Origin: Candidatus Kapaibacterium sp.
GTDB taxonomy: Bacteria > Bacteroidota > Ignavibacteria > Kapaibacteriales > Kapaibacteriaceae
NCBI GenBank assembly: GCA_018883125.1
Contig: VEQR01000001.1
Span: 1,497 to 65,496, forward strand
Reading direction: 5' to 3'
DNA length: 64,000 nt
The position numbers and the translations under genes are program-made. Below the pieces are notes generated by a model. That model saw only the letters and a list, made by a program, of their open reading frames with translations, ran no database searches and was not told where the DNA came from. Positions 3,646 through 53,400 of the stretch are shown in pieces. How positions within the stretch are numbered: position 1 is the first letter of the stretch; the number at the start of each line of letters is the position of its first letter.

Positions 3646-5304
3646 TCAGCTTTTAGGAGGTAGTGGTAATTCTATGCCAAACTTTCGTGTGTTGGAAATC
3701 GCTCGCTCGTAGCCGGCATCGGCGTGTCGCAAGATGCCCATTAAAGGATCGTAAGTCAATACCCGTGCCAACTTTTCTTCTGCGGCAGAAGTTCCGTCGG
3801 CCACCACAACCATTCCGGCATGCAGGGAAAGCCCCATGCCAACTCCTCCGCCATGGTGAAGCGAAACCCACGTTGCGCCTCCAACAGCATTGAGGGCAAA
3901 GTTCAGATGCACCCAATCAGCTACGGCATCTGACCCGTCCTTCATGGCTTCGGTTTCACGATGGGGCGAGGCAACGCTTCCACAGTCGAGATGATCCCGA
4001 CCGATAACGATCGGTGCCTTGACCTTTCCGTCGCGCACCAGGTCGTTGAAGAGTTTGCCTGCCTTGGCCCGTTCACCGTAGCCAAGCCAGCAGATCCGCG
4101 CCGGCAGACCCTGATAACCAATGTGGTCCTGCGCTTCGCGAATCCACCGGTGAAGCTGCACGTTGTCCGCAAATAACTCCATAATGGCGTCATCGGTTAC
4201 ACGGATATCCTCTGGATCACCAGAAAGTGCTACCCACCGGAATGGCCCCTTACCATCGCAGAACAGTTCGCGAACGAATGCGGGCACAAATCCGGGGAAG
4301 TCGAAGGCGTTGGCAACACCATCGAAGTCGCGCGCGATCCCGCGGATGTTGTTGCCGTAATCGAAGGTTATGGCACCCTTGGACTGAAAGCCCAGCATGG
4401 CGCGGACGTGCGCGCCGATGCTCGCATAGGAGCGCTTGAGGTAATCATCCGGGTTACTGATCCGCAATGCGTCAGCTTCCAGCTTTGTGAGTCCGGCAGG
4501 ATAATACCCGTTGAGCGGATCGTGTGCCGAGGTCTGGTCGGTAACAACATCGGGGATGATCCCACGCTCGAGCAACAGGGGAAGGATCTCGGCCGCGTTG
4601 CCCACAAGGCCAATGGAGATTGGCTCCCGACGCTCCTGATACTCCCTGATAACGGCCAGTGCCTCATCGAGATGGTGCATTTTTCGGTCGCAGTACCCAT
4701 CGCGAATGCGCTTGTCAATTCGCACTTCGTCGATCTCAATACACAGCGCCGCTGCGCCGGCTATTGTTGCGGCAAGGGGCTGAGCACCGCCCATTCCTCC
4801 CAGACCGGCAGTAAGAAGAAAGCGTCCGTTGAGTGTACCGCCAAAGTGCTGACGCGCACATTCGGCAAAGGTTTCATAGGTGCCTTGAACGATCCCTTGC
4901 GTACCGATATAGATCCACGAACCCGCGGTCATCTGACCGTACATCATAAGCCCCATGGCATCGAGCCGACGAAACTCCTCCCATGTGGCCCACTTGGGTA
5001 CAAGGTTGGAATTTGCAATGATCACCCTCGGAGCTCCGGTGTGGGTCTTCACCACGCCAACGGGCTTGCCGCTCTGAACGAGAAGCGTTTCGTCCACCTC
5101 CATCGTGCGTAGTGATTCCAATATTGCCTCGAAGGCCTCCCAATTGCGGGCGGCCTTGCCCAGACCACCATACACGATCAGCTCATCGGGCTTCTCGGCA
5201 TTCTGCGGGTCGAGGTTGTTCTGGATCATTCGATAGGCGGCTTCGATCTCCCAGTTCTTACAGGTAAGCGTCGAGCCGCGAGGAGCAGTGATGGTGCGAG
5301 TCAT
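3646..5304 (-). CDS. hutU: Urocanate hydratase (urocanase)
   Basis: 552 aa with high similarity along its length to HutU, for example [30 protein letters not shown] and [13 protein letters not shown], which are NAD-binding urocanase signatures. Confidence 0.92.
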
Positions 5305-5310
5305 GGTCGA

Positions 5311-5547
5311 GGAAATTACGGAGGTACGGAATTACGGAATTACGGAATGACGGAATGACTGATGACTGATTACTGATTACTGATGACTGATTACTGGGCG
5401 ATATGGGTTTTGCTCATTTTCATCAGTCGACGGTCATCAGTCATCAGTCATCAGTCATCAGTCATCAGTCATCAGTCATCAGTAATCAGTCATCAGTCAT
5501 CAGTAATCAGTCATCAGTAATCAGTCATCAGTCATCAGTCATCAATC
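5311..5547. repeat. Inverted microsatellite arrays. About 4 copies of GAATTACG (8-mer) plus about 7 copies of ACTGATG/ACTGATT (7-mer) lie on the left, then a roughly 38 bp spacer, then about 17 copies of CATCAGT/AATCAGT in inverse orientation.
   Basis: Read directly from the sequence. The left and right arrays are reverse complements of each other and should form a long imperfect hairpin. The element lies between the mazF 3' end and the hutU start. Confidence 0.9.
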
Positions 5548-5886
5548 TGCAACCAACGTCTTGAGCTTTGCTAACACGTCATTGAGTTGATTTGGTTTCA
5601 GCGAGCCCACTTTTCGAGCGGATCGGGCTTTCCAATCAACACAACGAATCTGGTCGACAAGGATAGCACCATCAAGACCTTGATCGCTGGTGATGCTGAC
5701 TTCAAAGGGGTAGCCTTTGCGAACGCTCGTGATCGGGCAGACGATGGCCAGTCCCGATGCTCGATTGTAGAGTATCGGTGATATCACGACTGCGGGACGC
5801 CGACCGCGCTGCTCGCTACCGAGGGTTGGGTCGAAGCTCAGCAGTACGACGTCACCACGACCCGGAGCTGATGCCATAGCTACCAA
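5542..5886 (-). CDS. mazF: MazF/PemK-family endoribonuclease toxin (type II toxin-antitoxin module)
   Basis: 114 aa. GDVVLLSFDPTLGSEQRGRRPAVVISP...GLAIVCPITS..KGYPFEV closely parallels E. coli MazF (GDLIWVDFDPTKGSEQAGHRPAVVLSP...CLCVPCTT.SKGYPFEV). Confidence 0.88.
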   Translation of the reverse strand: MVAMASAPGRGDVVLLSFDPTLGSEQRGRRPAVVISPILYNRASGLAIVCPITSVRKGYPFEVSITSDQGLDGAILVDQIRCVDWKARSARKVGSLKPNQLNDVLAKLKTLVAD

Positions 5887-6125
5887 ACCTCCTTACCCTG
5901 CGGTCCGTCGAATTCAATGATCTGGTGTCTCGTTTCCGGAGTTATATCCTTGACGAGGTCGACCAACGCATATGGGTCCGGGGTCTCGACTGCGCGTACG
6001 ATCAATTCTCCGTCCTGGAGATGAAGTTCGACCAGGCGATTATCTCCGAGGCCCATCTCATCGATGACGATTTTTGGAATGCGTAATGCCATACTGTTTC
6101 CCCATTTCTGGATACGAGCTTTCAT
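5880..6125 (-). CDS. mazE: MazE-family antitoxin (AbrB/SpoVT-type swapped-hairpin fold)
   Basis: 81 aa. KWGNSMALRIPK...DGELIV...LVKDITPETRHQIIEFDGPQGKEVW parallels E. coli MazE (KRWGNSPAVRIP...DGKLII...[25 protein letters not shown]). Its stop overlaps the mazF start by 7 nt. Confidence 0.85.
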   Translation of the reverse strand: MKARIQKWGNSMALRIPKIVIDEMGLGDNRLVELHLQDGELIVRAVETPDPYALVDLVKDITPETRHQIIEFDGPQGKEVW

Positions 6126-6228
6126 AGAAAGAAAACGTGACAGTTATACATTGTTGATACAAGATAGGGAGCCGCAGCTTATCTGCTTGAAATCAGGATG
6201 ACCGGTGTTTCCGACGATGATCTGAGAG

Positions 6229-6588
6229 CTAGGTATGCGACGACAGCTGATGATCGATATCATCAAGCGTCTGCTGACTCAGGCGCTTGGATTCAAAGAT
6301 CGATCGGAGCATGTCAAACGAATAGATGCCGGTGTCGTGTCCGTCTTTCCACGACGCCTGGATGCCGTAATTGCCAACGGGCGTAAGAGCAGCAATGTCG
6401 TTCATGCCGGGGGCGAGGGTTTTCATGCCGGGGAAAACGATCTGACCCATGATCTGCTCACCGGAGCAGTGGGCGCATGGACAGGCGTCCCGCAGGTCAG
6501 ATAGGAGGATACAGGATTCGAGTCCGTCCGACCAGGTGCTACAGAGCACGGCGGCGTTGCGCCGTTTCAGTGATAAGGGGCGAAGCAT
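6229..6588 (-). CDS. DUF971 family protein (gamma-butyrobetaine hydroxylase-like N-terminal domain). The start is uncertain, and the ORF extends to 6672.
   Basis: WSDG...[13 protein letters not shown]...[24 protein letters not shown] matches the DUF971 signature. It is divergent from asnS. Confidence 0.6.
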
Positions 6589-7978
6589 GACGCAAACTTC
6601 GCCAAGTTCTCGCGTATTTTCGCGAATGCAATCGCGATACAAATCCTTTGTTGCCATCGAAGACTTGGCCAATCACATTGGCGAAACCGTCACCCTGAAT
6701 GGTTGGGTGTACGACAAGACCGAGAAGGGCAAGCTCATCTTTATCAAACTCCGCGACGGTAGCGGAATCGTGCAGTGCGTGCTCTTCAAGCCGAACGTCT
6801 CCGAAGAGATTGCGGGCAATGCTCAGCACCTCACGCAGGAGTCCAGCGTGTCGATCACCGGCACGGTTCGTGCGGAACAGCGAGCCCCCTCCGGAGTTGA
6901 GCTTGATGTGACCGATGTGCGCATTTGGCAGGTCTCGAAGGACTACCCGATAACGCCGAAAGAACACGGTGTGGAGTTTCTAATGGAGCACCGCCACCTG
7001 TGGTTGCGTTCTGCGCGTCAGCATGCGATCATGCGCGTGCGCGCTCGGGTGATCAAGGCCATCCGTGATTTCTTTGATGGCAATGGCTTCCGGCTGATGG
7101 ACTCGCCGATCTTTACGCCGAATGCCTGCGAGGGCACATCGACGTTGTTCGAGACGGAGTACTTCGATCTTGGCAAGGCCTACCTCACGCAGTCGGGCCA
7201 GCTCTATGCCGAAGCAAGTGCCATGGCACTTGGCAAGGTCTATACGTTTGGACCGACCTTCCGTGCCGAGAAGTCCAAGACGCGCCGTCACCTGACGGAG
7301 TTTTGGATGGTAGAGCCGGAGATGGCTTACTTTGACATCAATGATGACATGGATCTGGCGGAAGACCTCGTCGAGTATATCGTGCAGTCGGTCCTGAAGG
7401 ACTGTCAGCGCGAACTCGCTACACTTGGCCGCGATGTCTCCAAGCTCGAAGCTGTGCGTCGCCCCTTCTATCGTATGTCCTACACCGAAGCTGTGGACTG
7501 GCTGAATAAGAACGATGTGAAGCTCAATCGCAAGCAGCCCGATGGTTCGGAGATCCAGGTAGACTTCCCGTGGGGCGAAGACTTCGGTGCTCCGCAGGAA
7601 GAAGCTATCATGCAGCAGTTCGACCGTCCGTGCATCATCCACCGCTACCCATCGGAAGTGAAAGCGTTTTACATGAAGCGCGATCCGGAGAACACGAACG
7701 TCGTGCTGGCCATGGATATGCTTGCTCCGGAAGGGGCTGGCGAAATCATCGGCGGCTCGCAGCGGGAAGACAACCACGATCTGCTCCTCGAACGCCTGCG
7801 TCACGAAAACCTTCCCGAGGATGCGTTCCAATGGTACCTCGACCTGCGCAAGTTCGGCTCCGTCCCGCACTCCGGCTTTGGTTTGGGCGTTGAACGGACC
7901 GTGAAGTGGATCACCGGCGCCGAGCATATTCGAGAAGTCATCCCGTTCCCACGGATGATCTATCGGATCGTGCCGTGA
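6587..7978 (+). CDS. asnS: Asparagine--tRNA ligase, with an alternative start at about 6626 (MQSRYKSF)
   Basis: Class IIb aminoacyl-tRNA synthetase with an N-terminal OB anticodon-binding domain ([25 protein letters not shown]) and class II motifs ([25 protein letters not shown]). The high Asn-specific similarity extends along the whole length. Confidence 0.9.
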
Positions 7979-7988
7979 GCCGCTGAGC

Positions 7989-8312
7989 GGAATTACTGAA
8001 GTACGGAAGTACGGAAGTACCGAAGTACTGAAGTACGGAAGTACCGAAGTACGGAAGTACCGAAGTACGGAAGTACCGAAGTACGGAAGTACCGAAGTAC
8101 GGAAGTACCGAAGTACAATGGAGTGGCACCATATATGTCGCTTTCGTGGGAATGACAGACAATCACTTGTTTCGGCAGACCCCAATCGAGTGCATCAGTA
8201 CTTCAGTACTTTAGCAATTCAGTACTTCAGTACTTCAGTAATTCAGTACTTCAGTACTTCAGTACTTCAGTAATTCAGTAATTCAGTACTTCAGTAATTC
8301 ACTACTTCACCT
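7989..8312. repeat. Inverted 8-mer microsatellite arrays. About 16 copies of GAAGTACG/GAAGTACC lie on the left, then a roughly 80 bp spacer, then about 14 copies of CAGTACTT/CAGTAATT, which are the reverse-complement units.
   Basis: Read directly from the sequence. The right array runs up to the pepF start codon. Confidence 0.9.
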
Positions 8313-10100
8313 ATGGACACAACCAAGACAAACGGCTCTGAAAACATTTTCTGGGACCTCTCAGATCTTTACGCAACGCTCGATGAGACGGGCCTTGAGG
8401 GCGACCTCGCGCGCATTGGCGATCGCACGAAGGCTTTTCGTGAAAAGTGGCACGGTCGGTTCGCAACTTCCAGCATCGCCGAGTTCATGGAGATGGTTGC
8501 CGAATACGAGCAACTAAACGAGGACTTCGGTCGAATGGGTGCCTTTGCGCATCTGCAATGGTCAACCGACTCGGAAAATGTGGAATACGGCAAGCTGATG
8601 CAGCGTGTTACGGAAACGCTGTCAAAGGCATCGAACGAGATCATCTTCGTTGACACAGAGCTATCGAGCCTTTCTGCCGAGCGCATTGCCGAATTGATGG
8701 CGGCTCCGGAGATGGCCTCGCGCAAGCACTGGCTGGAAGTCGTTATGGACTATAAGCCCCATACCCTCAGCGAAGACGTGGAGCAGGCGCTCAATGCCAA
8801 GTCCGTGACATCGCGCTTTGCTTGGGTTCGTCTTCACGACGAAGTGTCGGGTGCGATGACGTTCTCGTTTCGTGGACAGGAGTACACGATTGCGCAGATG
8901 ACGAAGATGCTCTACGATGGCGATCGCCAGACACGGAAGGAAGCAGCTGAGACGATCTCGGCTGTACTCAAGACAGATGCCAAGATGCATGCCTACGTGT
9001 TCAACACGATCATCGGCGATTGCGAAGTCAATGACCGTTTGCGCTCCTACCCAACGTGGGTTTCAAGCCGCAACCTCTCGAATGAGGTGTCCGATGCATC
9101 CGTTCAGGCCCTCGTCGATGCCGTCGTCTCTCGCTACGATCTGGTTCATCGGTATTTCGCTCTGAAGAAGGGGCTCCTCGGACTTGATAAACTGTATGAC
9201 TATGATCGGTATGCTCCGGTGACCGAAGTATCGGATTTCTGGACGTGGGATCAGGCACGGGCTATCGTGACGGATTCATACATGTCATTCGATAGGCGAG
9301 CAGGCGAGATCGCCTCGATGTTCTTCGAAAAGAACTGGATCCATGCGCCAGTTCGCAAGGGCAAGCGCAGCGGTGCCTACAGCGCGGGTACCATCGCCTC
9401 CGTGCACCCGTATGTGTTCATGAACTACACCGGCACTAGCCGCGATGTGCAGACGCTGGCACACGAGCTTGGCCACGGCGTGCATCAATACCTGTCACGT
9501 CAGCAGGGCCCCCTGCAGATGCACACGCCCCTTACCATCGCCGAAACGGCAAGCGTGTTTGGGGAGATGATCACGTTCAAGAAGATGTATGAGCAGACCA
9601 CGAGCGACGAAGCAAAGCTCGCACTGCTCATGTCCAAGCTCGACGGAATGATCGCAACGGTGTTCCGTCAGGTTGCCCTTAATCGTTTCGAAGAAGCCGT
9701 TCACATTGCACGCCGCACGCAGGGCGAGCTCTCGCTGGATCAGATCAACGAGATCTGGCTCACTACACAGAAGAGCCAATTCGGAGATTCCGTCGAACTC
9801 AGCGATGGCTATGAAGTGTGGTGGTCCTACATCTCGCACTTCATTCACACGCCGGGCTACGTGTACGCCTACGCCTTCGGTGAATTGCTTGTGCTGGCGC
9901 TGTATCAGATCTACCTGCAAAGCCCGGAGACATTCCCCGACAAGTACATCGAGCTCCTCTCGTCAGGGGGCTCTAAGCGTCCGGAAGAACTTCTCGCCCC
10001 CTTCGGACTCGACATTACCAGTCCAACATTCTGGCACAACGGACTGTCGTTTATCGACAGCTTCCTGGGTCAGGCTGAAGCGTTGGCTGGGAAGAAATAG
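8313..10100 (+). CDS. pepF: Oligoendopeptidase F (M3B family metallopeptidase)
   Basis: 595 aa with the zinc motif HELGHGVHQYL (HEXXH) and a downstream Glu ligand region. Overall it resembles PepF. Confidence 0.88.
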   Translation: MDTTKTNGSENIFWDLSDLYATLDETGLEGDLARIGDRTKAFREKWHGRFATSSIAEFMEMVAEYEQLNEDFGRMGAFAHLQWSTDSENVEYGKLMQRVTETLSKASNEIIFVDTELSSLSAERIAELMAAPEMASRKHWLEVVMDYKPHTLSEDVEQALNAKSVTSRFAWVRLHDEVSGAMTFSFRGQEYTIAQMTKMLYDGDRQTRKEAAETISAVLKTDAKMHAYVFNTIIGDCEVNDRLRSYPTWVSSRNLSNEVSDASVQALVDAVVSRYDLVHRYFALKKGLLGLDKLYDYDRYAPVTEVSDFWTWDQARAIVTDSYMSFDRRAGEIASMFFEKNWIHAPVRKGKRSGAYSAGTIASVHPYVFMNYTGTSRDVQTLAHELGHGVHQYLSRQQGPLQMHTPLTIAETASVFGEMITFKKMYEQTTSDEAKLALLMSKLDGMIATVFRQVALNRFEEAVHIARRTQGELSLDQINEIWLTTQKSQFGDSVELSDGYEVWWSYISHFIHTPGYVYAYAFGELLVLALYQIYLQSPETFPDKYIELLSSGGSKRPEELLAPFGLDITSPTFWHNGLSFIDSFLGQAEALAGKK

Positions 10101-11045: not shown

Positions 11046-11756
11046 ATGACAATGGTCAACACTCGAACCTTTTTGGTCGTCGCGCTCGGCTTTGCTCTGC
11101 CGCTGATGATGTGTGCTCAACCGCGTCTCCAAATGCAATCGTTGGTGGATTGGGGTGTGGTAGTACCCAGTGGATCACTGACGAAGCAAGAGTCCGTCAA
11201 GTATCGCGTTCCGATCAAGAACACCGGAAACAAGACGCTCGTGATCTCGTCGGTACGTCCACAATGCGGATGTACAACAGCGCCACTGGAACGTGACACG
11301 TTACGTCCGGGCGAAGAGACGGGCATGAACATCACCCTCACATTGCCAGCCGGCAGCGGGGTGATCGACAAGTATGTGACGGTGTTCAGCAACGACTCCG
11401 CTGGCAGCCATGTTGTGAAGCTTCGGGCAGAAGTGCAGCGCCCCCTTCAGCTGTCATCAAGCTTTCTGGGGTTTAATCAGGGCTATGTCGGTGAGCCAAC
11501 ACGCTCAAAGATCAAGCTCACAACGCAGGTAGACGAAGATGTGACGATCACAATTGAACCGGTAACGCCCGGCCTGTCGGTCGTTGGCCCGTCAAAACTG
11601 ACAGCTCGCAAAGGCGTTGCCGTTCCGATCGAAGTTGAGTATGTGCCGAACGCGTTCGGTGCGTTCAACGTGGCACTGAAGATCAAGACAACGCTGAAAG
11701 ACTACGAGGTTATCGACATCACCGGCTACGGGATCGCTGACGCTCCGAAGAGGTAA
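11046..11756 (+). CDS. DUF1573 domain-containing secreted protein
   Basis: Signal peptide MTMVNTRTFLVVALGFALP. DUF1573 core with IKNTGNKTLVISSVRPQCGCT followed by a second beta-rich domain. The ORF track starts upstream at 10944, and the signal-peptide Met is preferred. Confidence 0.65.
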   Translation: MTMVNTRTFLVVALGFALPLMMCAQPRLQMQSLVDWGVVVPSGSLTKQESVKYRVPIKNTGNKTLVISSVRPQCGCTTAPLERDTLRPGEETGMNITLTLPAGSGVIDKYVTVFSNDSAGSHVVKLRAEVQRPLQLSSSFLGFNQGYVGEPTRSKIKLTTQVDEDVTITIEPVTPGLSVVGPSKLTARKGVAVPIEVEYVPNAFGAFNVALKIKTTLKDYEVIDITGYGIADAPKR

Positions 11757-13590
11757 CCCGCTCGTAGATGATAAAACCGCCATCGCGATATCTCTCACGA
11801 AGCGTTGGCACGGTTGACCAGTTTGTAGCATCATTGATGCGACATACAAAAGTGGCCCGACGGTCGATGTCGCCGTTGATCAGCCACGGTTCCCAATCAT
11901 CGGCCGCGATGCCCTTGGCGGCAGAACTCAAGTGGTATGGCTTCTGCGTGTAGAAGAGATGCGCATAGCTCTTCATGGTGAGGGGCTTTACATACACATC
12001 CTTGCCCCTCAATGACTGATAGAAGTCAAGAGCAGCCCCCTGCGAATAGGCCTCGATCTTCGGAGCAACAAGAGGAAGAAACGTGAAGACGAACACCATC
12101 ACACTGGCGTACAGTGTGATGAGTCCGGCAAGGGGCTTGCGTTTACGCAGGATTACGTTCACGACTGCGCCCGCGATGAGCACGAGTCCAATCAATGGCT
12201 CTACACCCAACCACTCAACATTGCGTGACATTGCCTCGCGAAGAAACGGATCGCGAAACGATGGCAGCGAGAGCATCCACTCGCTGTGCATGAATGCAAG
12301 CGGAACGATAATGGCTATCCCACCAAGCAGGAAAGAATGCGCAAGGATGATGAACGATGTGAGGTATGGGGTTCTGTAGGGGCGAGACGCAGTCTCGCCC
12401 GTGTTCATCATGTCGTGGTGGCGAGACGCAGTCTCGCCCGTGTTCATCATGTCGTGGTGGCGAGACGCAGTCTCGCCCGTGTTCATCATGTCGTGGTGGC
12501 GAGACGCAGTCTCGCCCGTGTTCATCATGTCGTAGGGGCGAGACGCAGTTTCGCCCGTGTTCATCAGGCCCCTTCTCACGATCCACATCGCCGCCAGGTA
12601 GGTCAGCGGGATGTAGGCCATAGAGCTGTAGTGGACGATCTTGGTGGTGACGGCGGAGAAGACCACCAGGACAACGAAGAAGAGTGCCGTCATCCACTGA
12701 CGCATGCGCTGAACGTCTGCGGTTTCGTCCTGTGCTGCCCGTAGTCCGCCAAAGAAAAACACCGATGATGGATAACAGCCGATCAACAGAACGATGCTGT
12801 GATAATACCACGGTTGGGCGTGGCCGGCCTCGCCGGTTGTGAGCAGACGCCACTGGTAGTGAATGTTCTCGAGTAGGAAGGTTGGCCCGTTCTGCATGGC
12901 ATCAATGCCAAGCCAGACTGCCGGAAGCGTCAGGGCCGTGACGGTGATGATGGCAAGATCTCTGATCGGGAAGGCAATGGCGGTTGACCGTCGCTGCCAT
13001 ATCCACATCACCAGTGCTGTAAGAACAACAAGCCCAAGGCCCACGGGCCCCTTCGTCATGACGGCAAGGCTTGCATACAGTCCGGCCTGAAAGGGGCGCC
13101 CCTTCCCTTCAAGCTGACCTCTGATGATCTGCCAGATGGACAGGAAGATGAACAGATTGAAGGTCGGGTCGATGATTCCCGAGCGTGCATAGAAGTGGGG
13201 AAGGAGCGTGCCGAGATACACCATCGGCCAGAGAACTCCCATGGCACTCCCGCCAATGCGACGTCCGATGTGATGCAGCACCAAGAGCGTGATGACCCCG
13301 ACGATGGCATTGGGAAGTCTCGCAGCAAACTCGTTGATGCCGAAGACGTGCATCGATAGTGCCTGCATCCATACGAAGAGAGGGGGCTTTTCGGTGAACG
13401 GACGATAATCGATTTGCATATGCAGATAATCGCCCGTAGCGATCATCTCGCGCGCGCATTCGGCAAAGTTGATCTCGTCCCAGTCGAACAGGCGCACCGA
13501 CCCCAGAAAGGGTATAAAGAGGAGAAGTCCAACGGCGAGGATCAGCAGGCGCTGCCGCCGCACATCATGTAAGGTGGCGCTTGTGTTCAC
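11719..13590 (-). CDS. ArnT/PMT-like membrane glycosyltransferase (GT39/GT83 fold) carrying an internal 13-aa tandem repeat
   Basis: N-terminus LFDWDEINFAECAREMIATGDYL...FTEKPPLFVWMQA and its multi-TM topology are typical of ArnT/dolichyl-phosphate-mannose protein mannosyltransferase-like enzymes. There is an internal (MMNTGETASRHHD)x~6 insertion. Confidence 0.75.
   Translation of the reverse strand: MNTSATLHDVRRQRLLILAVGLLLFIPFLGSVRLFDWDEINFAECAREMIATGDYLHMQIDYRPFTEKPPLFVWMQALSMHVFGINEFAARLPNAIVGVITLLVLHHIGRRIGGSAMGVLWPMVYLGTLLPHFYARSGIIDPTFNLFIFLSIWQIIRGQLEGKGRPFQAGLYASLAVMTKGPVGLGLVVLTALVMWIWQRRSTAIAFPIRDLAIITVTALTLPAVWLGIDAMQNGPTFLLENIHYQWRLLTTGEAGHAQPWYYHSIVLLIGCYPSSVFFFGGLRAAQDETADVQRMRQWMTALFFVVLVVFSAVTTKIVHYSSMAYIPLTYLAAMWIVRRGLMNTGETASRPYDMMNTGETASRHHDMMNTGETASRHHDMMNTGETASRHHDMMNTGETASRPYRTPYLTSFIILAHSFLLGGIAIIVPLAFMHSEWMLSLPSFRDPFLREAMSRNVEWLGVEPLIGLVLIAGAVVNVILRKRKPLAGLITLYASVMVFVFTFLPLVAPKIEAYSQGAALDFYQSLRGKDVYVKPLTMKSYAHLFYTQKPYHLSSAAKGIAADDWEPWLINGDIDRRATFVCRINDATNWSTVPTLRERYRDGGFIIYERVTSSERQRSRSR
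12366..12585. repeat. 39-bp tandem repeat (about 6 copies) inside the ArnT-like CDS. Each unit contains the palindrome GGGGCGAGACGCAGTCTCGCCC.
   Basis: Perfect 39-nt periodicity read from the sequence. It is in-frame, encoding MMNTGETASRHHD units. The same palindrome occurs intergenically at about 41377 and, as a variant, at 24520-24640. Confidence 0.9.
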
Positions 13591-18289: not shown

Positions 18290-19900
18290 ATGAAAAACGA
18301 ACCAACGTTCAAGGGGCTTTCCCGCCGGTCATTCATCGCCCGGGCCACGGGAGCCGTTACCCTGCCGATCCTGTTCAATGGTCTGCCCCTTAAGGCCTTT
18401 GATGGCCCGGCTCTGCATGACCTCTACAACGTGGAAGCGGAAACAGATCGCGTACTTGTGCTTGTGCAGCTCAATGGCGGGAATGACGGTCTCAATACGG
18501 TGATCCCGCTCAACGACTATTCGACGTATGCCAAGCTCCGCCCCAACATTGCCATTCCGGAGAAGTCGGCTCTAAAGCTGACGTCCGGTGCCGGACTTCA
18601 TCCGAACATGACCGGTATGCAGCAGCTCTGGGACGAGAAGAAGCTGGGAATCATCCAGGGCGTGTCGTATCCGAATCCCAATCTTTCTCACTTCCGCTCT
18701 ACCGACATCTGGATGAGCGCCAGTGCCTCAAATGTGAATGAGACCACCGGTTGGCTTGGTCGGTATCTGAACATGGAGTATCCCAACTATCCGCAGGGAT
18801 TTCCAAATGCTGCCATGCCGGACCCGATTGCCATTCAAATGGCGGCGGTGGTAGGGCTTTCCCTCACGGGTCTCGAGCACCAGTCGATGGGCATTGCCCT
18901 GCAGGATCCCGAGACGTTCTATCGTCTCGTCAGCGGCACCGATGCCCCGGGATCGGACCTCCCGTCAACCAAGCTTGCCGCTGCCAATATCACCTACGTC
19001 CGCGAGGTGCAAACCAAGTCCATGCAGTTTAGCACCGTCATCAAAGCGGCTGCCGATAAGGCCAAAAACATCGAGACTTATCCAGCCGGAAACAAGCTTG
19101 CCGATCAGCTGAAGGTTGTTGCACGCCTGATTGCCGGTGGACTCAAGACCCGCGTGTACGTTGTGCAGTTAGGGGGCTTTGACACGCACGCCGGCCAGAC
19201 AGATTCAACAGAACCAACGAAGGGTACGCATGCAAACCTGCTGGAGATGGTCTCGCAGGCAATGACCGCATTCCAGCGCGACATCGAAAAGCTTGGTGCC
19301 GCAGACCGCGTTGTTGCAATGACCTTCTCCGAGTTCGGACGTCGCGCAAATTCGAACGAGAGCTATGGAACCGATCACGGCACCTCGGCACCAATGTTCA
19401 TCCTGGGGAGCCCCGTTCAGGAAGGGATCACGGGAACGAGTCCTGACCTCTCAAAACTCAAGGACGACAACCTGCCGATTCAGTTCGACTTCCGTCAGGT
19501 CTATGCCAGCATCCTCGAGCAGTGGTTCGGTGCCAAGAAGTCCGTGGTCAAACAGGTCCTCTTTGACAATTTCGATACGGTCAAGGTGATCAAGGGGCAA
19601 ACCACCTCGGTTGACGAAGCGCCAAGTGTTTCAACACAGGTATTTACTCTCTCACCAGTCGCACCAAACCCAGTGCGCAGCGACGCTTCCGTTTCGTACG
19701 ATCTGCGTTCCGAGGGCATGGTCCATCTGAACCTCTTCGATAATCTCGGCCTGCATGTTGCGACACTTGTGGCTGAGTACCAAGGCGTTGGCTCATACAG
19801 CATACCGCTCACCGCCAGCAACCTTCCGAGTGGATCATACGTCATCGAACTGCGTTTCGGCAATGATCGTGCTCATCAGGTGATGGTGGTGGCGAGGTAG
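18290..19900 (+). CDS. DUF1501 family protein with a Tat signal peptide and a C-terminal T9SS sorting domain
   Basis: Twin-arginine motif LSRRSFIARATGAV. DUF1501 (sulfatase-like) core. C-terminal roughly 90 aa (FTLSPVAPNPVRSDASVSYDL...VHLNLFDNLGLHVATLV...GSYVIELRF) matches the T9SS C-terminal-domain signature. Confidence 0.8.
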   Translation: MKNEPTFKGLSRRSFIARATGAVTLPILFNGLPLKAFDGPALHDLYNVEAETDRVLVLVQLNGGNDGLNTVIPLNDYSTYAKLRPNIAIPEKSALKLTSGAGLHPNMTGMQQLWDEKKLGIIQGVSYPNPNLSHFRSTDIWMSASASNVNETTGWLGRYLNMEYPNYPQGFPNAAMPDPIAIQMAAVVGLSLTGLEHQSMGIALQDPETFYRLVSGTDAPGSDLPSTKLAAANITYVREVQTKSMQFSTVIKAAADKAKNIETYPAGNKLADQLKVVARLIAGGLKTRVYVVQLGGFDTHAGQTDSTEPTKGTHANLLEMVSQAMTAFQRDIEKLGAADRVVAMTFSEFGRRANSNESYGTDHGTSAPMFILGSPVQEGITGTSPDLSKLKDDNLPIQFDFRQVYASILEQWFGAKKSVVKQVLFDNFDTVKVIKGQTTSVDEAPSVSTQVFTLSPVAPNPVRSDASVSYDLRSEGMVHLNLFDNLGLHVATLVAEYQGVGSYSIPLTASNLPSGSYVIELRFGNDRAHQVMVVAR

Positions 19901-19902
19901 GC

Positions 19903-20070
19903 TCACGTCATCCCCGCAAAAGCGCGTCATCCCCGCAAAAGCGCGTCATCCCCGCGAAAGCGCGTCATCCCCGCGAAAGCGCGTCATCCCCGCGAAAGCG
20001 CGTCATCCCCGCGAAAGCGGGGATCCATAACGCATGGATTCCCGCTTCCGCGGGAATGACGGAGGGTCCC
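19903..20070. repeat. About 6 tandem copies of the 19-bp unit GCGCGTCATCCCCGCGAAA, ending in two hairpins (CATCCCCGC-GAAA-GCGGGGAT and ATTCCCGC-TTCC-GCGGGAAT)
   Basis: Read directly from the sequence. It lies between the DUF1501 stop and the GT2 start. Confidence 0.9.
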
Positions 20071-20085
20071 TCGTAACTTGCCGTT

Positions 20086-21120
20086 GTGACCACCGACGTT
20101 TCTGTTATCATTCCATGTCGCAACGAGCGCAGCACCATAGAGCAGGTGCTGGCCGATTTGCATGCGCAGACGTTTGCCGGAACGATGGAGGTGATCGTTG
20201 CAGACGGGTGCTCCGATGATGGAACCAGGGATATCCTCGACGCCGCCAGCGCGAGTGAAAAGTTTCGGTATCCGCTCAGAGTAATCACGAACGGCAAGCG
20301 CGTTATTCCATCGGCCTTGAACAAAGCGGTGGAGAGTGCGGATGGACGTGTGATCATTCGTGTTGACGGGCATTCTCATGTTCCGTGTACGTACGTGGAG
20401 GAGATCGTCCAGGCGCTTGCTCAGGGCACAGCCGAAGTTGTCGGCCCACGGGTGCGCTTTGTGCCAGGATCAACGAGCTCCGTTGCCTATGCGATATCGA
20501 CAGTGCAGTCCAGTGTGTTCGGAACAGGGGGCACAGCTTCGCGACGGAATCTCAGCAAGCCCGTGAGAGTAGTCCATGCTGTGATGTCGTGCTACAACCG
20601 CACCGTATGGGAGCGAGTAGGGGGCTATGATGAATCCCTGCTCACCAACGAAGATTTTGACTTCGACTACCGCGCAACACAAGCCGGTGCAACGGTGCTT
20701 GCCCTGCCGTCACCGGAGTTTCAGCTCATGGCACGCTCGACGCTGCGGGGACTTCTTGCTCAGCGGTGGCGCTATGGGTGGTGGAAGGCAGCAGTCATCA
20801 AGAAGCACCCGGGGTCGCTGCACTTGCGTCAGATAATACCTGTTGTGGCGCTTGTGTCATTTGTTGCGCTGGGTGGTGCGTCATTCGCAAGCTCGTCTTA
20901 CGCTGTGGCCCTTGTGGCAACGATCTACGGCTATGCAGGACTCAGCAGTTGTGCTGCACTGTTGGCACTGATGCCGAACGTCCTTACTGAAGAGTCACCC
21001 GACGGAAAGAAGATTCTCGCAACGGTGCTGCTTGCCCCCTTCATCTTTGCCATCATCCATGGCATATGGGCTGCCGGAGTTGTGTCCGGACTTCTCTTTG
21101 GCCGCATCCAACGACGCTAA
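20086..21120 (+). CDS. Family 2 glycosyltransferase with C-terminal membrane helices
   Basis: VSVIIPCRNE...VIVADGCSDDGT is a GT-A DXD-type N-terminus. The C-terminal hydrophobic helices are typical of polyprenyl-phosphate sugar synthase-like GT2 enzymes. Its GTG start follows the repeat array directly. Confidence 0.8.
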   Translation: MTTDVSVIIPCRNERSTIEQVLADLHAQTFAGTMEVIVADGCSDDGTRDILDAASASEKFRYPLRVITNGKRVIPSALNKAVESADGRVIIRVDGHSHVPCTYVEEIVQALAQGTAEVVGPRVRFVPGSTSSVAYAISTVQSSVFGTGGTASRRNLSKPVRVVHAVMSCYNRTVWERVGGYDESLLTNEDFDFDYRATQAGATVLALPSPEFQLMARSTLRGLLAQRWRYGWWKAAVIKKHPGSLHLRQIIPVVALVSFVALGGASFASSSYAVALVATIYGYAGLSSCAALLALMPNVLTEESPDGKKILATVLLAPFIFAIIHGIWAAGVVSGLLFGRIQRR

Positions 21121-24380: not shown

Positions 24381-24462
24381 TGCGGAAGGAGAGACTCGAA
24401 CTCTCACAGGTTGCCCCGCCAGATCCTAAGTCTGGTGCGTCTGCCAATTTCGCCACTTCCGC
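24381..24462 (-). tRNA. tRNA-Leu (anticodon TAG), with a long variable arm
   Basis: Reverse complement: GCGGAAGTGGCGAAATTGGCAGACGCACCAGACTTAGGATCTGGCGGGGCAACCTGTGAGAGTTCGAGTCTCTCCTTCCGCA. It has a 7-bp acceptor stem, an anticodon loop CTTAGGA, and a long extra arm with a TPsiC arm GTTCGAGTC. Confidence 0.85.
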
Positions 24463-24715
24463 AGAGCCACAAAGATAGTGACGAGAGACGAGAGACAAGA
24501 GACAAGAGACGAGAGACGAGAGACCGTAGGGGCGAGACGAAGTCTCGACCAAGAGACGAGAGACCGTAGGGGCGAGACGAAGTCTCGACCAAGAGACGAG
24601 AGACCGTAGGGGCGAGACGAAGTCTCGACCAAGAGACGAGAGACAAGCCATTGATTTACTAGCCCCGGGCCTTGGCCCGGGGAAAGAGAGACGAGAGACT
24701 ACCTCAATTTCGTGC
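24463..24715. repeat. Composite repeat block made of a GAGACGA/GAGACAA 7-mer microsatellite, three roughly 40-bp units containing CCGTAGGGGCGAGACGAAGTCTCGACC, and the palindrome CCCCGGGCCTTGGCCCGGGG
   Basis: Read directly from the sequence. It lies immediately 5' of tRNA-Leu on the coding strand and downstream of the csaA-like gene. Confidence 0.9.
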
Positions 24716-37972: not shown

Positions 37973-37974
37973 CG

Positions 37975-38420
37975 CCTTCGGCGTGGGGGACGCTTCGCGT
38001 GGGGGACGCCTTCGGCGTGCGAGACCTTCGGTGCGAGACGCCTTCGGCGTGCGAGACCTGCGGTGCGAGACGCCTTCGGCGTGTGGGACGCTTCGCGTGG
38101 GGGACCTGCGGTGCGAGACGCCTTCGGCGTGCGAGACGCTTCGCGTGGGGGACGCCTTCGGCGTGTGGGACGCCTTCGGCGTGTGGGACCTGCGGTGCGA
38201 GACGCCTTCGGCGTGCGAGACCTGCGGTGTGGGACCTGCGGTGCGAGACGCCTTCGGCGTGCGAGACGCTTCGCGTGGCGTCATCCCGAACGAAGTGAGG
38301 GACCTAGTGTGGGACGCTTCGCGTGTGGGACGGTGGTGTCACTCGTCTCTCGTACCCCGGGCCAAGGCCCGGGGCTATTATGGATGGATTGTCACTTGTC
38401 ACTCGTCACCCGTCACTCGT
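37975..38420. repeat. Mosaic GC-rich minisatellite of three short unit types (GRGACGCCTTCGGCGTGY, GRGACCTGCGGTGY and GRGACGCTTCGCGTGGG). It is followed by the palindrome CCCCGGGCCAAGGCCCGGGG and GTCACTYGTCAC units.
   Basis: Read directly from the sequence. About 19 units occur in irregular order. The first unit type contains a UUCG-loop hairpin (ACGCC-TTCG-GCGT). Confidence 0.9.
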
Positions 38421-39068
38421 CTACATCCCCAGCCCCTTGCCGCGAAATAGCTTGGCATATGCCGCATTGCCGGGGTGGGTGGTATCCATGCAGTTGACCA
38501 CGGTGACCGGACCCATGATGCGGGAGCGGATTTCGAAGGAACCAATAGTGCGTGTGGTGCGCGGGACAATGGTCGAAACATCGACTTGCGAGAGGTTGCC
38601 GACCAAGTAGAGGGTTGCCGGAAGTTCGTTCTTGGTAAGAAGCCCTCCGATCATCGACACGATAACGGACTGCTTGCCAAGAGGGAGCTTCGTTTCGGTC
38701 GACATTGCTTTGCGGAGGTTGCGCCGATACTCTCCAATTGATGCACACCATGGATCCGTCGTTGGCGAACCGATGATCATATCAGTCGTTGCAGTGTCTG
38801 CTCCAATGTCGCGCGTGATAACGTCGATGATACTGTCGGCACGACGCTGCTCAATGCGACTGAAGACCACGGTGTACACAACGCGCTTGGCGCTCTTGAG
38901 CTTTTGACGAGAGAGTACCTCACCCGGCTTGGTGGAATCACGGTATAGCGCGCCCAGGACAACTGCCGTAACGGCCAGGACAGCAACGATGATGTAAAAG
39001 TACAGCCAACCATTCTTTGTGGTTGGCGGCAGCATCGACGCATTGTCGTCAAACTCTTCTGTGCTCAT
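38421..39068 (-). CDS. Hypothetical membrane-anchored protein (N-terminal TM helix, extracytoplasmic domain)
   Basis: 215-aa ORF. The TM helix is WLYFYIIVAVLAVTAVVLGAL. It is the last gene after yebC and purF on the minus strand, and its start is 4 nt from the purF stop. No family was recognised. The GTCACTCGTC repeats supply its last codons. Confidence 0.5.
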   Translation of the reverse strand: MSTEEFDDNASMLPPTTKNGWLYFYIIVAVLAVTAVVLGALYRDSTKPGEVLSRQKLKSAKRVVYTVVFSRIEQRRADSIIDVITRDIGADTATTDMIIGSPTTDPWCASIGEYRRNLRKAMSTETKLPLGKQSVIVSMIGGLLTKNELPATLYLVGNLSQVDVSTIVPRTTRTIGSFEIRSRIMGPVTVVNCMDTTHPGNAAYAKLFRGKGLGM

Positions 39069-40523: not shown

Positions 40524-41240
40524 TTACTCGTTCTCGTTCATGTTGTGGAACACATTCTGTACATCGTCATCATCTTCTAGCTTATCGATCAGCTTGATGA
40601 TCTCCTCGGCCTGCTCATCGGTCAACGTCACGGTGTTATTCGGCAGGCGACGCACTTCAGCATTGGTGACCGCAATGCCGGCCTGCTCCAGTGCACGCTG
40701 CACACCGATGAAATCGGCAAAGGATGTGTACGCGATGATGTCGTCATCCTGATCCACGATGTCCTCAGCCCCATTCTCGATGAGAAGCATTTCGAGGTCA
40801 TCGCGGTTCACACCGGCCGAAGGAATCGTGAACACACCCTTGCGATCGAAGATGAATTCCAGCGACCCGGACGTGCCAAGCTGTCCGTTGCACTTGTTGA
40901 AGTACGACCGCACATTGGCCACGGTCCGCGTTGGATTGTCAGTAGCCGTTTCCACAAAGATGGCTACGCCGTAAGGGGCGTACCCTTCGTAATTCATCTC
41001 CTCGAGCGTGGCCGCATCTTTGGCAGACGCCTTCTTGATAGCACTCTCGATGTTGTCCTTCGGCATGTTTGCCGCCTTGGCGTTCTGGATCACCACGCGT
41101 AGCCGCGCATTGGTCTCCACGTCCGGTCCACCAGCCTTCACGGCCAGCGATATCTCGCGTCCGTACTTGGTGAACGTTCGTGCCATGTTGGCCCAGCGCT
41201 TTTCTTTGCGGGCCCGTCGAAATTCAAATGCTCTACCCAT
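40524..41240 (-). CDS. yebC: YebC/PmpR-family DNA-binding transcriptional regulator
   Basis: 238 aa. GRAFEFRRARKEKRWANMARTFTKYGREI...GGPDVETNARLRVVIQNAKAANMPKDNIE is the YebC signature. Confidence 0.9.
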   Translation of the reverse strand: MGRAFEFRRARKEKRWANMARTFTKYGREISLAVKAGGPDVETNARLRVVIQNAKAANMPKDNIESAIKKASAKDAATLEEMNYEGYAPYGVAIFVETATDNPTRTVANVRSYFNKCNGQLGTSGSLEFIFDRKGVFTIPSAGVNRDDLEMLLIENGAEDIVDQDDDIIAYTSFADFIGVQRALEQAGIAVTNAEVRRLPNNTVTLTDEQAEEIIKLIDKLEDDDDVQNVFHNMNENE

Positions 41241-41269
41241 TAGGTTTTAGGTGTTGGGTTTTGGGTGTT

Positions 41270-41460
41270 GGGTTTGGGTTAGTCTAGTCATTTTGGCCGA
41301 AGCCCAGAGCAAGCAAGGGGCAGGGTTGATTTCGTTGATTCGGGCGAGGGCCGGGGGTTGATTTCGTTGATTCGGGCGAGACTGCGTCTCGCCCCTACAT
41401 GTCACTCCGTACCTCCGTCACTCCGTACCTCCGTCACTCCGTACCTTCTTCTCGTATATC
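41270..41460. repeat. Composite repeat: a G/T-rich microsatellite (GGTGTTGGGTTTTGG...), a duplicated 29-bp GGGTTGATTTCGTTGATTCGGGCGAG, the palindrome GGGCGAGACTGCGTCTCGCCCC, and GTCACTCCGTACCTCC x3
   Basis: Read directly from the sequence. The last repeat units extend into the 3' end of the GNAT CDS and encode its final residues (…SDGGTE*). Confidence 0.85.
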
Positions 41461-51407: not shown

Positions 51408-53141
51408 ATGCATGCCTTTGACTTTCTCGATGAACTCGCTCTGTTGTGTCTTGCGGCACTTGTAGTACTGCGCGTCTTCCGCCAGATTCATCTGCCCCCT
51501 GTCATCGGGTTGATCGTTACGGGGCTCCTGTTGGGTCCTACGGGGTTCGGGATAGTCCAGCAGGACCAGATCATATCCTCCATCGCCGAGATCGGGGTGA
51601 TGCTCCTGTTGTTTACGATCGGTCTGGAGTTCTCGCTAGACGAGCTCAGGAAACTCCGCTCGATCGTGCTGATCGGTGGCCCGCTGCAGATAATCCTTAC
51701 CACGCTCGCGACAACGGCGTTGGTATATGGGGTATCTGTCGTTGCATCCACCGCCTATTCGACCTCTGAAGCAATTCTGATTGGAATGGCCTCTGCCTTG
51801 AGTTCAACGGCGATCTGTATCAAGCTGTTGAGCGATCGTCGGGAGCTTATGCAACCACAGGGACGGGCGGCACTTGGCATTCTCATCTTCCAGGACATTG
51901 CCGTTGTCCCGATGATGATCATCGTTACGCTATTGGACACGCGTCAGGACGTGAACCCCGGTGAGATAACCGTGCGTTTGCTGCTGCTTGTTGCTGTGAC
52001 TGTTGCCATGATCGTTGGCATGCGACTGGTTCTTCCGCGTCTTACACCCCACCTGGCACGCTCCTCGAACCCGGAAGTCCTAATTCTTGCTGCGCTGGGC
52101 TTGTGTTTTGGTGCGGCATGGGTAACGTCGCTGGCTGGCATATCTATGGCTCTTGGAGCATTCATAGCCGGCATGGCTATCGCCGGTAGTGATGACGGCC
52201 ATGCCATTGGTAAGGCTGTAGAGCCGCTGCGCGATGCGTTCACCAGCATGTTTTTCCTTTCGGTGGGACTGTTGGTACACGTGGTGTGGGCGACCTTACC
52301 GGCGAACATTCTCACGGCGATGCTCATCCTATTGGTCAAGGGTGTTGTTGTAAGTCTGGTGCTGATCCTGGTTCGCGTTCCGATACGGACTGCTATCACC
52401 GCCGGCATCACACTTGCACAGGTGGGAGAGTTCTCCTTTGTACTTGCGTCCGTTGGAATGGATTACGGCGTTATCACTTCGACAGAGTTTCAGAATCTTC
52501 TGGTGACCATCATCATCACCATGATCGTAACGCCACTTCTCGTGACCTTTGCTCCTATAGTTGCTGAGCGTCTATCGCCCCTTGCGAGATTGACGCCCAC
52601 TCTACGCAGGTGGACAACTGATGATACCGATGGATACATCAGACTTGAGGAGGGAACTTTGCACGAAGATCAGCCGATGGTGCTCATCATCGGTGCTGGC
52701 GTTCTCGGACTCAATGTCGCGCACGTCCTGGCTCAGACAGGTATTCGATATCGTCTGCTGGAGTTGGACAGGAACAACGCTGCGGCCCTACGAGCTAAGG
52801 GAGAACCTTGCATATCGGGAGACATGACCGATGCAGACGCACTTCGTAGCGCTGGGATTCAACACGTCTCGAACGTCATCATCGCAATCAACCAGGATGC
52901 GGCCATCACGCGAGGCGTCAAACTCATCCGCTCCCTGCGTCCGGATGTCTACATCATTGTCCGCTCCCGCTACCAGCGCAACAGCAAGTCTGCCCTCGAT
53001 CAAGGAGCTGACCTAGTAATAGTGGAAGAGTTCGAGTCAAGCATCAAGATCTTCGGCTCCGTCCTTGAACACCTCGGCGTCGAACAAGACCTCATCGAAT
53101 ACCAGGAACGGTATATGCGACTGAGGCAGACGTTTTCATAG
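51408..53141 (+). CDS. CPA2-family cation:proton antiporter with a C-terminal RCK/TrkA-N domain (KefB/YbaL-like)
   Basis: About 12 TM Na+/H+ exchanger core followed by a Rossmann RCK domain (MVLIIGAGVLGLNVAHVLAQTGIRYRLLELD). Confidence 0.85.
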   Translation: MHAFDFLDELALLCLAALVVLRVFRQIHLPPVIGLIVTGLLLGPTGFGIVQQDQIISSIAEIGVMLLLFTIGLEFSLDELRKLRSIVLIGGPLQIILTTLATTALVYGVSVVASTAYSTSEAILIGMASALSSTAICIKLLSDRRELMQPQGRAALGILIFQDIAVVPMMIIVTLLDTRQDVNPGEITVRLLLLVAVTVAMIVGMRLVLPRLTPHLARSSNPEVLILAALGLCFGAAWVTSLAGISMALGAFIAGMAIAGSDDGHAIGKAVEPLRDAFTSMFFLSVGLLVHVVWATLPANILTAMLILLVKGVVVSLVLILVRVPIRTAITAGITLAQVGEFSFVLASVGMDYGVITSTEFQNLLVTIIITMIVTPLLVTFAPIVAERLSPLARLTPTLRRWTTDDTDGYIRLEEGTLHEDQPMVLIIGAGVLGLNVAHVLAQTGIRYRLLELDRNNAAALRAKGEPCISGDMTDADALRSAGIQHVSNVIIAINQDAAITRGVKLIRSLRPDVYIIVRSRYQRNSKSALDQGADLVIVEEFESSIKIFGSVLEHLGVEQDLIEYQERYMRLRQTFS

Positions 53142-53144
53142 AAT

Positions 53145-53400
53145 TACAGAGTTATAGAATTACTGAATTACTGAATTACTGAATTACGGAATTACGGAAT
53201 TACTGAATTACTGAATTACGGAATTACTGAATTACTGAATTACGGAGTTACGGAGTTACGGAGTTACGGAATTACTGAATTACGGAGTTATCAGACTCGT
53301 CACTTGTCACTTGTCACTCGTCACTCATCAGTAATCAGTAATCAGTAATCAGTAATCAGTAATCAGTAATCAGTAATCAGTAAACTCTCGTCACTCGTCT
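53145..53400. repeat. Microsatellite array of about 19 copies of GAATTACT/GAATTACG/GAGTTACG (8-mer), then a GTCACTYGTCAC spacer, then 8 copies of AATCAGT (7-mer, inverse orientation)
   Basis: Read directly from the sequence. It fills the whole gap between the convergent CPA2 antiporter gene and the cytochrome c/monooxygenase gene. Confidence 0.9.

Follow-up and report, generated by a model that had tools for sequence, protein, structure and literature searches.

Inverted tandem arrays of heptamers and octamers between mazF and hutU in a Kapaibacteria-like bacterium

The gap that separates mazF from hutU in the 64,000-nucleotide stretch of DNA analysed here (the window) raises the question of what kind of element occupies it, how that element arose, and whether it serves the genes on either side. 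The gap, 237 bp from the mazF stop (5542, minus strand) to the hutU start (5304, minus strand), consists almost wholly of short tandem repeats. It had been described in a first-pass annotation as inverted arrays of 7-mers and 8-mers around a short spacer, and this anatomy proved to be real by Tandem Repeats Finder, by reading of the individual units and by comparison with shuffled sequence, in which the three-unit patterns of the two repeat families, present 31 and 22 times in the window, did not occur at all. The names hutU and mazF given to the flanking genes also hold, from the match to Urocanase in length and the PemK_toxin match, respectively (Table 1).

Tandem Repeats Finder divides the gap into three arrays, at 5314-5356 (period 8, 5.4 copies, AATTACGG), 5355-5396 (period 7, 6.0 copies, ATGACTG) and 5420-5544 (period 7, 17.9 copies, TCATCAG). 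In the octamers at 5311-5359 the purine-rich strand is the plus strand. Read unit by unit, the left heptamers comprise five copies of TGATGAC/TGATTAC at 5360-5394 (five to six overall), while the right arm has 15 perfect CATCAGT/AATCAGT units, of which seven identical ones come first and mixed ones after, and a degenerate last unit that holds the mazF stop codon. The spacer measures 23 nt by Tandem Repeats Finder, or about 40 nt to the first perfect unit, and no second copy of it was found in the window or in some 300 fetched loci. The two unit lengths had been taken for a dual-period design, a description that does not survive inspection: the octamer GGAATKAC grades into the heptamer TGATKAC by loss of one base within what is a single array.

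Table 1. Coordinates of the genes and repeat arrays discussed in the text
Feature	Position	Strand	Description
hutU (urocanate hydratase)	3646..5304	-	Length as in Urocanase orthologues of relatives; ATG 6 nt from first repeat unit
Locus 1, octamer array	5311..5359	+	Adjoins hutU start; GGAAATTAC, GGAGGTAC, two GGAATTAC, two GGAATGAC; about 6 GGAAKTAC-type units
Locus 1, heptamer array (left hairpin arm)	5355..5396	+	ACTGATK, 6 copies, register TGATKAC; runs on from the octamers
Locus 1, spacer (hairpin loop)	5397..5434	strandless	Unique sequence
Locus 1, right arm	5420..5544	-	Reverse-complement heptamers, about 18 CATCAGT/AATCAGT as read on +
mazF/PemK toxin	5542..5886	-	PemK_toxin, E 3e-29; stop codon inside array edge
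mazE antitoxin	5880..6125	-	Forms the mazEF pair with mazF
Locus 2, left arm	7988..8116	+	GAAGTACS, 16 copies, 16-nt higher-order period; begins 10 nt past asnS stop (7978)
Locus 2, right arm	8195..8309	-	CAGTACTT/CAGTAATT, 14 copies (CAGTAMTT) as read on +; ends 3 nt before pepF ATG (8313)
Heptamer array	24480..24524	+	GACGAGA, 6.4 copies, purine-rich; left side of gap, 18 nt from tRNA gene
Heptamer array	38391..38421	-	GTCACTC, 4.4 copies, unit as at 53295; abuts stop of gene 38421-39068 (-)
Composite array	41401..41446	-	GTCACTCCGTACCTCC, 2.9 copies, pyrimidine-rich, related units; right side of 41241-41687 gap
Locus 3, left	53141..53290	+	GAATTACK, 18 copies; begins within TAG stop of Na/H-exchanger gene (51408-53141)
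Locus 3, right	53295..53383	-	GTCACTY, 5 copies, then CAGTAAT, 8 copies, as read on +; ends 17 nt short of stop of convergent gene 53401-55002 (-)

The hairpin potential first noted by eye was borne out by folding. The best pair of arms at locus 1 is 42 nt long and 98% complementary (5355-5396 against 5501-5542); as single-stranded DNA the locus folds at -48.1 kcal/mol (z -9.6) and its minus-strand RNA at -82.6 kcal/mol (z -9.2). The stem spans only some 42-60 bp because the left arm has just six heptamers, and the octamers have no complementary partner. Such a locus could fold into a long, imperfect, register-tolerant hairpin, either as single-stranded DNA or within a transcript that reads through it. 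The arrays resemble none of several better-known elements: no unit contains a GGG run, of which a G-quadruplex needs at least four; the units are contiguous and of 7-8 nt, and not CRISPR repeats of 23-47 nt with unique spacers of similar length; at the gathering score, Rfam returned no match to any array, its only match in the window being a tRNA at 24381-24462; and a scan of the gene strand revealed no intrinsic terminator, the sole match being a weak one on the plus strand inside the locus 1 spacer.

The same architecture had been reported to recur at two more loci of the window. GAAKTACK-type units do recur at both, and locus 2 is inverted; locus 3 is no true inverted repeat. Folded as RNA, locus 2, whose arms are 119 nt long and 81% complementary, reaches -143.4 kcal/mol (z -10.9), and its higher-order period of 16 nt is seen as 94% against 87% matches. 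The two arms have been homogenised separately, the eighth position of the unit reading S in the left arm and A in the right. Every turn therefore has one mismatch, and perfect pairing is not maintained. Locus 3, where the higher-order period is 24 nt, has no ungapped inverted repeat that reaches 20 nt, because its octamers face heptamers; if one-base bulges are allowed, it still gives a fold of -78.9 kcal/mol (z -5.2).

Tandem repeats of some kind occupy most of the long gaps between genes of the window, including nearly all of those above 180 bp, and several of these repeats are of other types. G/T-rich heptamers (GGTTTTG/GGTGTTG) at 41243-41280 begin 3 nt from the start of a YebC/TACO1-family gene (40524-41240, minus strand), and similar GGTGTTA-type arrays are found in the Ignavibacteria loci L042, L071 and L077. 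At 12381-12566 a 39-nt unit is repeated 4.8 times in frame within a PMT_2 glycosyltransferase ORF (11719-13590, minus strand), which is 623 aa long where relatives have 538-556 aa. The unit contains the palindrome GCGAGACGCAGTCTCGC and is translated as a repeat of 13 residues, MNTGETASRHHDM. The palindrome family GCGAGACnnnGTCTCGC, to which that of the PMT_2 unit belongs, appears also in a 40-nt unit repeated 3.3 times at 24512-24644 beside the tRNA gene and once at 41376-41392, and with nine sites in the window against 0.03 expected it makes up a family of REP-like elements. A 19-nt unit (CGTCATCCCCGCGAAAGCG, six copies, 98% identity) at 19906-20019 fills the gap between the same-strand genes 18290-19900 and 20086-21120. 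A complex array at 37971-38303, between convergent genes, repeats a unit of 16-18 nt, GACGCCTTCGGCGTGCGA, about 19 times, each copy a small hairpin, with higher-order periods of 32, 48 and 130 nt; this array gives rise to a spurious ORF of 155 aa.

The age of the arrays was judged from related genomes. The best matches to AsnS are 85-91% identical and belong to proteins named Candidatus Kapabacteria or Kapaibacterium; the collections searched contained no conspecific genome (the closest AsnS being 91% identical) and no proteins identical to HutU, PepF or MazE, and a 23-mer from the hutU start had no match in metagenomes. The gene order sigma factor, hutU, DUF971-like gene, asnS, pepF is found again in three related species of about 75-82% DNA identity, with gaps of 42-94 bp between asnS and pepF and of 9-118 bp upstream of hutU. 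None of the three has arrays at the corresponding sites, and there are hardly any across the roughly 20 kb compared in each. Since these nearest relatives preserve the gene order and lack arrays at these sites, the arrays are recent and lineage-specific. The mazEF pair (5542-6125), which lies here between a DUF971/GBBH-like gene and hutU, is missing at that position in all three relatives, and so represents a recent insertion beside locus 1. Two of the fetched loci (L111 and L112) encode identical AsnS, yet their contigs differ at L112 3377-3735; one of the two carries inverted 9-mer arrays, ATGGACGAT ... CGTCCATAT, beside a 23S_rRNA_IVP gene.

It had been supposed that the arrays form a genome-wide repeat family. 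A wider family does exist, and the proposed scope was too narrow, for array searches match many phyla. A three-unit GAAKTACN scan of one genome per species returned at least 107 stretches; among the matches listed are Ignavibacteriota/Kapaibacteria (many per genome), Bacteroidota, Actinomycetota, Proteobacteria, Cyanobacteria, Chloroflexota, Patescibacteria and others, with finished chromosomes and plasmids included. Arrays neighbouring these matches reuse units of the window, of GTCACTN, GTAATCA and GGTGTTA types. The longest array among the fetched loci lies in a metagenome-assembled Bacteroidetes genome (L075), in which 16 copies of AATTACG (6746-6855) form an inverted pair with 54 copies of TCGTAAT (7286-7668, 383 bp).

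A metagenome scan for three copies of ACTGATK gave at least 120 stretches, and viral contigs gave 60. Four of the viral contigs (L258, L262, L294 and L281), with a GC content of about 0.6, have RcGTA-like tail genes (Phage-tail_3, DUF2460, BR0599, NlpC/P60); the closest GenBank phage match to a tail protein of such contigs is only 35% identical. In the RcGTA-like-tail phages almost every gap of the tail-gene operon reads [stop]-(CAGTRAT)n-(ACTGAYN)n-[start]. Phage contigs 99.9% identical differ by one 50-nt repeat block, and in phage L281, at 50-80% protein identity, inverted heptamer arrays persist at corresponding positions. On the comparison of these sequences, such persistence across diverged phage lineages looks selected.

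How the arrays are oriented relative to genes was counted in the fetched loci with crude gene calls (longest ORFs of at least 100 aa), so that counts near start codons are noisy. Among the matches listed, octamers within 20 nt past a stop read GAAKTACN in the sense direction 23:4, and inverted octamer pairs are convergent 8:1. For ACTGATK heptamers from metagenomes the unit orientation is the opposite, 9:35 after stops and 1:23 for pairs among the matches listed; locus 1 has the arrangement that is rare for ACTGATK, seen in one of 24 pairs among these metagenome matches. A universal rule based on unit sequence is thereby ruled out, octamer GAAKTACN and heptamer ACTGATK being opposed, and strand purine content takes its place because it fits the octamer and heptamer sets alike. 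Where an array of the searched families abuts a stop, its purine-rich strand is the sense strand 55:16 (p 4e-6) among the matches listed, and for units that had not been searched for the ratio, again among the matches listed, is 20:9. Beside starts the sense strand of an abutting array tends to be the pyrimidine-rich one (19:11 and 15:6 among the matches listed). Adjacent arrays of any unit run from purine-rich to pyrimidine-rich 20:5 and 33:13, or 17:2 and 23:7 when counted per locus, likewise among the matches listed. Within the window this polarity is obeyed by loci 1 and 2, by the 41243-41446 pair and by the first adjacent pair of locus 3.

These counts point statistically to a general orientation constraint, with a sense strand that is purine-rich beside a stop codon and pyrimidine-rich beside a start codon. 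Where both ends of a gap have arrays of one unit family, arms that obey this polarity are bound to be convergent and complementary. If the rule holds, the inverted arrangement and its hairpins are a consequence of it, and not a separate design.

On balance, and with much room for doubt, the element is probably a pair of intergenic long simple-sequence repeats generated by slippage and shaped by this orientation constraint, the hairpin being a by-product. The anatomy suggests recent growth of the arrays in a Kapaibacteria-like lineage, through slippage during replication or through unequal exchange. A unit would gain a point change or lose one base, and the variant would then be amplified, at times as blocks of two or three units. 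Expansion would continue until coding sequence was met on both sides, and could be tolerated up to the coding edges in a lineage that needs no Shine-Dalgarno sequence; no purine-rich motif was found ahead of the hutU or pepF ATG. The graded passage from octamer to heptamer at locus 1 is in keeping with this account, as are the run of identical units that opens its right arm, the higher-order periods of loci 2 and 3, the separate homogenisation of the locus 2 arms and the one-block difference between 99.9%-identical phage contigs. So are the edges of the arrays, some of which reach or include a stop codon (mazF, Na/H exchanger), while at start codons only 3-6 nt are left free. Complementarity is not obligatory, since locus 3 sets octamers against heptamers and the locus 1 octamers are unpaired. 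Among long simple sequence repeats, heptamers are more frequent than any other unit length and are ascribed to slippage of the polymerase (Mrazek et al. 2007, as summarised in PMC4679880), and structural variants of lake bacteria have hot spots at intergenic tandem repeats (PMC9426551). Any effects of the arrays on expression, such as pausing, partial termination or RNase III cleavage, are probably secondary; the genes beside them are housekeeping genes, and close relatives do without the arrays.

Neutral slippage alone does not predict so strong an orientation rule, nor arrays that begin exactly at stop codons, and a transcript-level or mechanistic constraint of some sort must exist behind the rule. 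The small vocabulary of units shared by unrelated phyla (GGAATTAC, GTCACTN, CAGTAAT) likewise counts against plain slippage. Two other proposals concerning the units were tried and rejected. That the arms of locus 1 derive from a single inverted duplication is not supported by the order of their variants, for which the best mirrored register has one mismatch and is equalled by 58% of shuffles (p 0.58). That the cores GTAC, AATT and AGTACT are avoided restriction-type sites finds no echo outside the arrays, where observed/expected ratios are unremarkable (0.83 for GTAC, 0.96 for AATT).

The chief alternative is that the arrays act in RNA as punctuation between genes, the purine-rich arm past a stop pairing with the pyrimidine-rich arm ahead of the next start, and the resulting hairpin serving as a terminator or attenuator, an RNase III site, a stability element or a device for stop-start translational coupling. 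This seems a genuine but rather doubtful possibility. The fixed polarity of arrays abutting stops and starts fits it well, the predicted structures are highly stable, and a U/C-rich 3' arm would suit a termination-prone hairpin. Its strongest support comes from the phage tail operons, with arrays in nearly every gap kept at 50-80% protein identity. The arrays of Xanthomonas are transcribed, but experiments there found no function for them (PMC4692102), while TAACTGA repeats close before start codons have been proposed as sites for translational regulators (PMC4679880). On the other hand, the nearest relatives express the same genes with the arrays missing at those sites, the hairpins are not followed by a U-tract, and no Rfam family matches. 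In addition, a mismatch recurs systematically between the arms of locus 2, neither locus 3 nor the locus 1 octamers show complementarity, and one arm does not mirror the variant order of the other any better than shuffled orders do (p 0.58).

A bolder form of the same idea would make the arrays a widespread punctuation system, present in many bacterial phyla and some phages, with a purine arm at each stop and a pyrimidine arm at the next start. In such a system the repeat arms would pair in any register, and the base of the helix would join the stop to the next start; attenuation, the processing of transcripts or the coupling of termination to reinitiation are possible roles. Plain slippage would then not be the source of the shared unit vocabulary, which might instead be due to a protein or ribosome partner in common or to an activity dedicated to generating the units. 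This we regard as unlikely.

It was originally suggested that slippage in the arrays would shift the spacing of the hutU promoter, and the corresponding reading is that of a phase-variable contingency locus, in which altered promoter spacing or leader length toggles hutU or pepF. Unit lengths not divisible by three, arrays directly upstream of start codons, and copy numbers that can differ in near-identical genomes (the phage case) would all accord with it. The promoter part of the suggestion is not supported. No sigma-70-like site was found at 5200-8500, with a tool that does not cover promoters of this lineage, and none is therefore apparent in or between the arrays; inspection of the spacers by eye found no TAnnTTTG. 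In two of the three relatives hutU lies only 9-31 bp behind the upstream same-strand gene, which suggests that hutU is co-transcribed with that gene and not driven by a promoter in the array gap. A private hutU promoter in the gap is unlikely on account of this spacing and of the missing sigma-70-like site. Moreover, urocanase and oligoendopeptidase F belong to housekeeping metabolism and are not surface or host-interaction proteins, arrays occur also between convergent genes, where no promoter exists, and earlier heptamer studies were likewise negative (PMC4692102). Phase variation is thus a very improbable explanation.

The arrays can hardly be the terminal inverted repeats of a MITE/REP-type mobile insertion: for all their inverted-repeat outline, their absence from relatives and the mazEF cassette inserted beside locus 1, their spacers are unique in the window and in some 300 fetched loci, so that the conserved core of a mobile element is lacking, no duplicated target site could be seen, tandem arrays that vary in length stand in place of fixed termini, and locus 2 has no accompanying insertion. 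It is likewise very unlikely that they are assembly artefacts, made of collapsed, expanded or misjoined repeat reads; many such arrays do lie at contig ends of the fetched metagenome-assembled genomes (for example L018, L030, L053 and L103), and since they break short-read assemblies the copy numbers may be inexact, but the arrays contain irregular unit variants, are joined to unique sequence on both sides and are flanked by intact genes of the same lengths as their orthologues, and isolates have equivalent arrays in finished chromosomes and plasmids (Vibrio NZ_CP179206.1, Streptosporangium NZ_CP192027.1).

Among the long simple repeats of bacteria none are more frequent than tandem heptamers and octamers, for which 35 years have brought no accepted function; arrays of this kind are also a known cause of broken assemblies. 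The locus between mazF and hutU, which on the favoured reading is a slippage product under an orientation constraint, offers a clear case from a poorly studied lineage, and the polarity across phyla and the phage case are the points most worth following. In the comparison the gene-relative purine polarity holds for several unit families, in many phyla and in phage contigs alike. If the polarity reflects function, annotation pipelines would be overlooking a general signal at gene boundaries; otherwise the arrays are useful markers of slippage-prone, fast-evolving intergenic DNA.

The long simple sequence repeats with units of 5-11 nt (Mrazek et al. 2007, as summarised in PMC4679880) provide the broadest comparison. 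Units of 7-8 nt, lengths beyond chance, non-coding position, sporadic distribution and proposed slippage are common to both, and locus 1 is itself composed of head-to-tail units within the 1-11 nt range in runs longer than chance. That class is descriptive only, being silent on pairing and polarity. REP/BIME palindromes and intrinsic terminators resemble the arrays in that they, too, can form hairpins outside coding sequence, whether between genes or at 3' ends, but here the arms are tandem arrays, with no conserved palindromic unit and no short GC-rich stem followed by a U-tract.

Mazel and colleagues (Mazel et al., 1990) are said to have described cyanobacterial STRR units with the sequences CCCCAGT, TTGGTCA and CAACAGT. 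Three tandem heptanucleotides are known from Calothrix (PMC4692102). These too are non-coding tandem heptamers, and CAACAGT is one base from the CATCAGT of the window; unlike the present arrays, STRRs were defined in heterocystous cyanobacteria and are not described as inverted pairs, and by that definition the window arrays stand outside the group.

Direct repeats of TAACTGA have been found in Beggiatoaceae, Cyanobacteria and Bacteroidetes (MacGregor 2015, PMC4679880). Like the arrays of the window they are intergenic, abut gene ends and are scattered over phyla, and the TTACTGA and TGACTGA of the window are one base away from them; long mixed heptamer arrays are present in some Bacteroidetes whose close relatives are without them (PMC4679880), as here. 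The TAACTGA repeats, however, are in forward orientation just before start codons and are mostly unpaired, whereas in the window ACTGATK follows stops and its complement precedes starts. The sense strand upstream of hutU and pepF reads CCGTAATT, CAGTMAT or CAGTAMTT, which is complementary to the TAACTGA orientation and sets these arrays apart from that class.

The closest parallel is offered by the GGGAATC heptamer arrays of Xanthomonas, which form 70-75 convergent inverted pairs per genome, near the end of the upstream ORF (Rehm et al. 2015, PMC4692102). Downstream of a gene their G-rich strand is the coding one, upstream of it the non-coding one. These arrays are transcribed, differ in length from one related species to another, lie beside ordinary metabolic genes and have yielded no function (PMC4692102). 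With these and the GGGGAYT repeats of Nostoc (PMC4692102) the window arrays share their nature as intergenic heptamers, and with those of Xanthomonas also the convergent pairs, the stem-loop or cruciform potential and the polarity relative to genes; at locus 1 the same unit lies on opposite strands, convergent, close together and intergenic. In contrast to the window units, which are free of GGG, the Xanthomonas and Nostoc units contain G-runs and are G-quadruplex-capable; the window further differs in mixing octamers with heptamers, in its Kapaibacteria-like host, and in that its arrays are not common to the nearest relatives. A literature search for the literal repeat strings gave no match.

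The earlier statement that such arrays are not a standard annotated class is accordingly right in one respect, in that annotation omits them, and wrong in another, in that the class is on record in Xanthomonas (PMC4692102) and related heptamers elsewhere (PMC4679880). The element between mazF and hutU is of a known but unexplained kind, whose class, inverted form and polarity are already on record; what is new here is the Kapaibacteria-like host, the mixture of octamers and heptamers free of G-runs, and a polarity that is seen to extend into further families of units.
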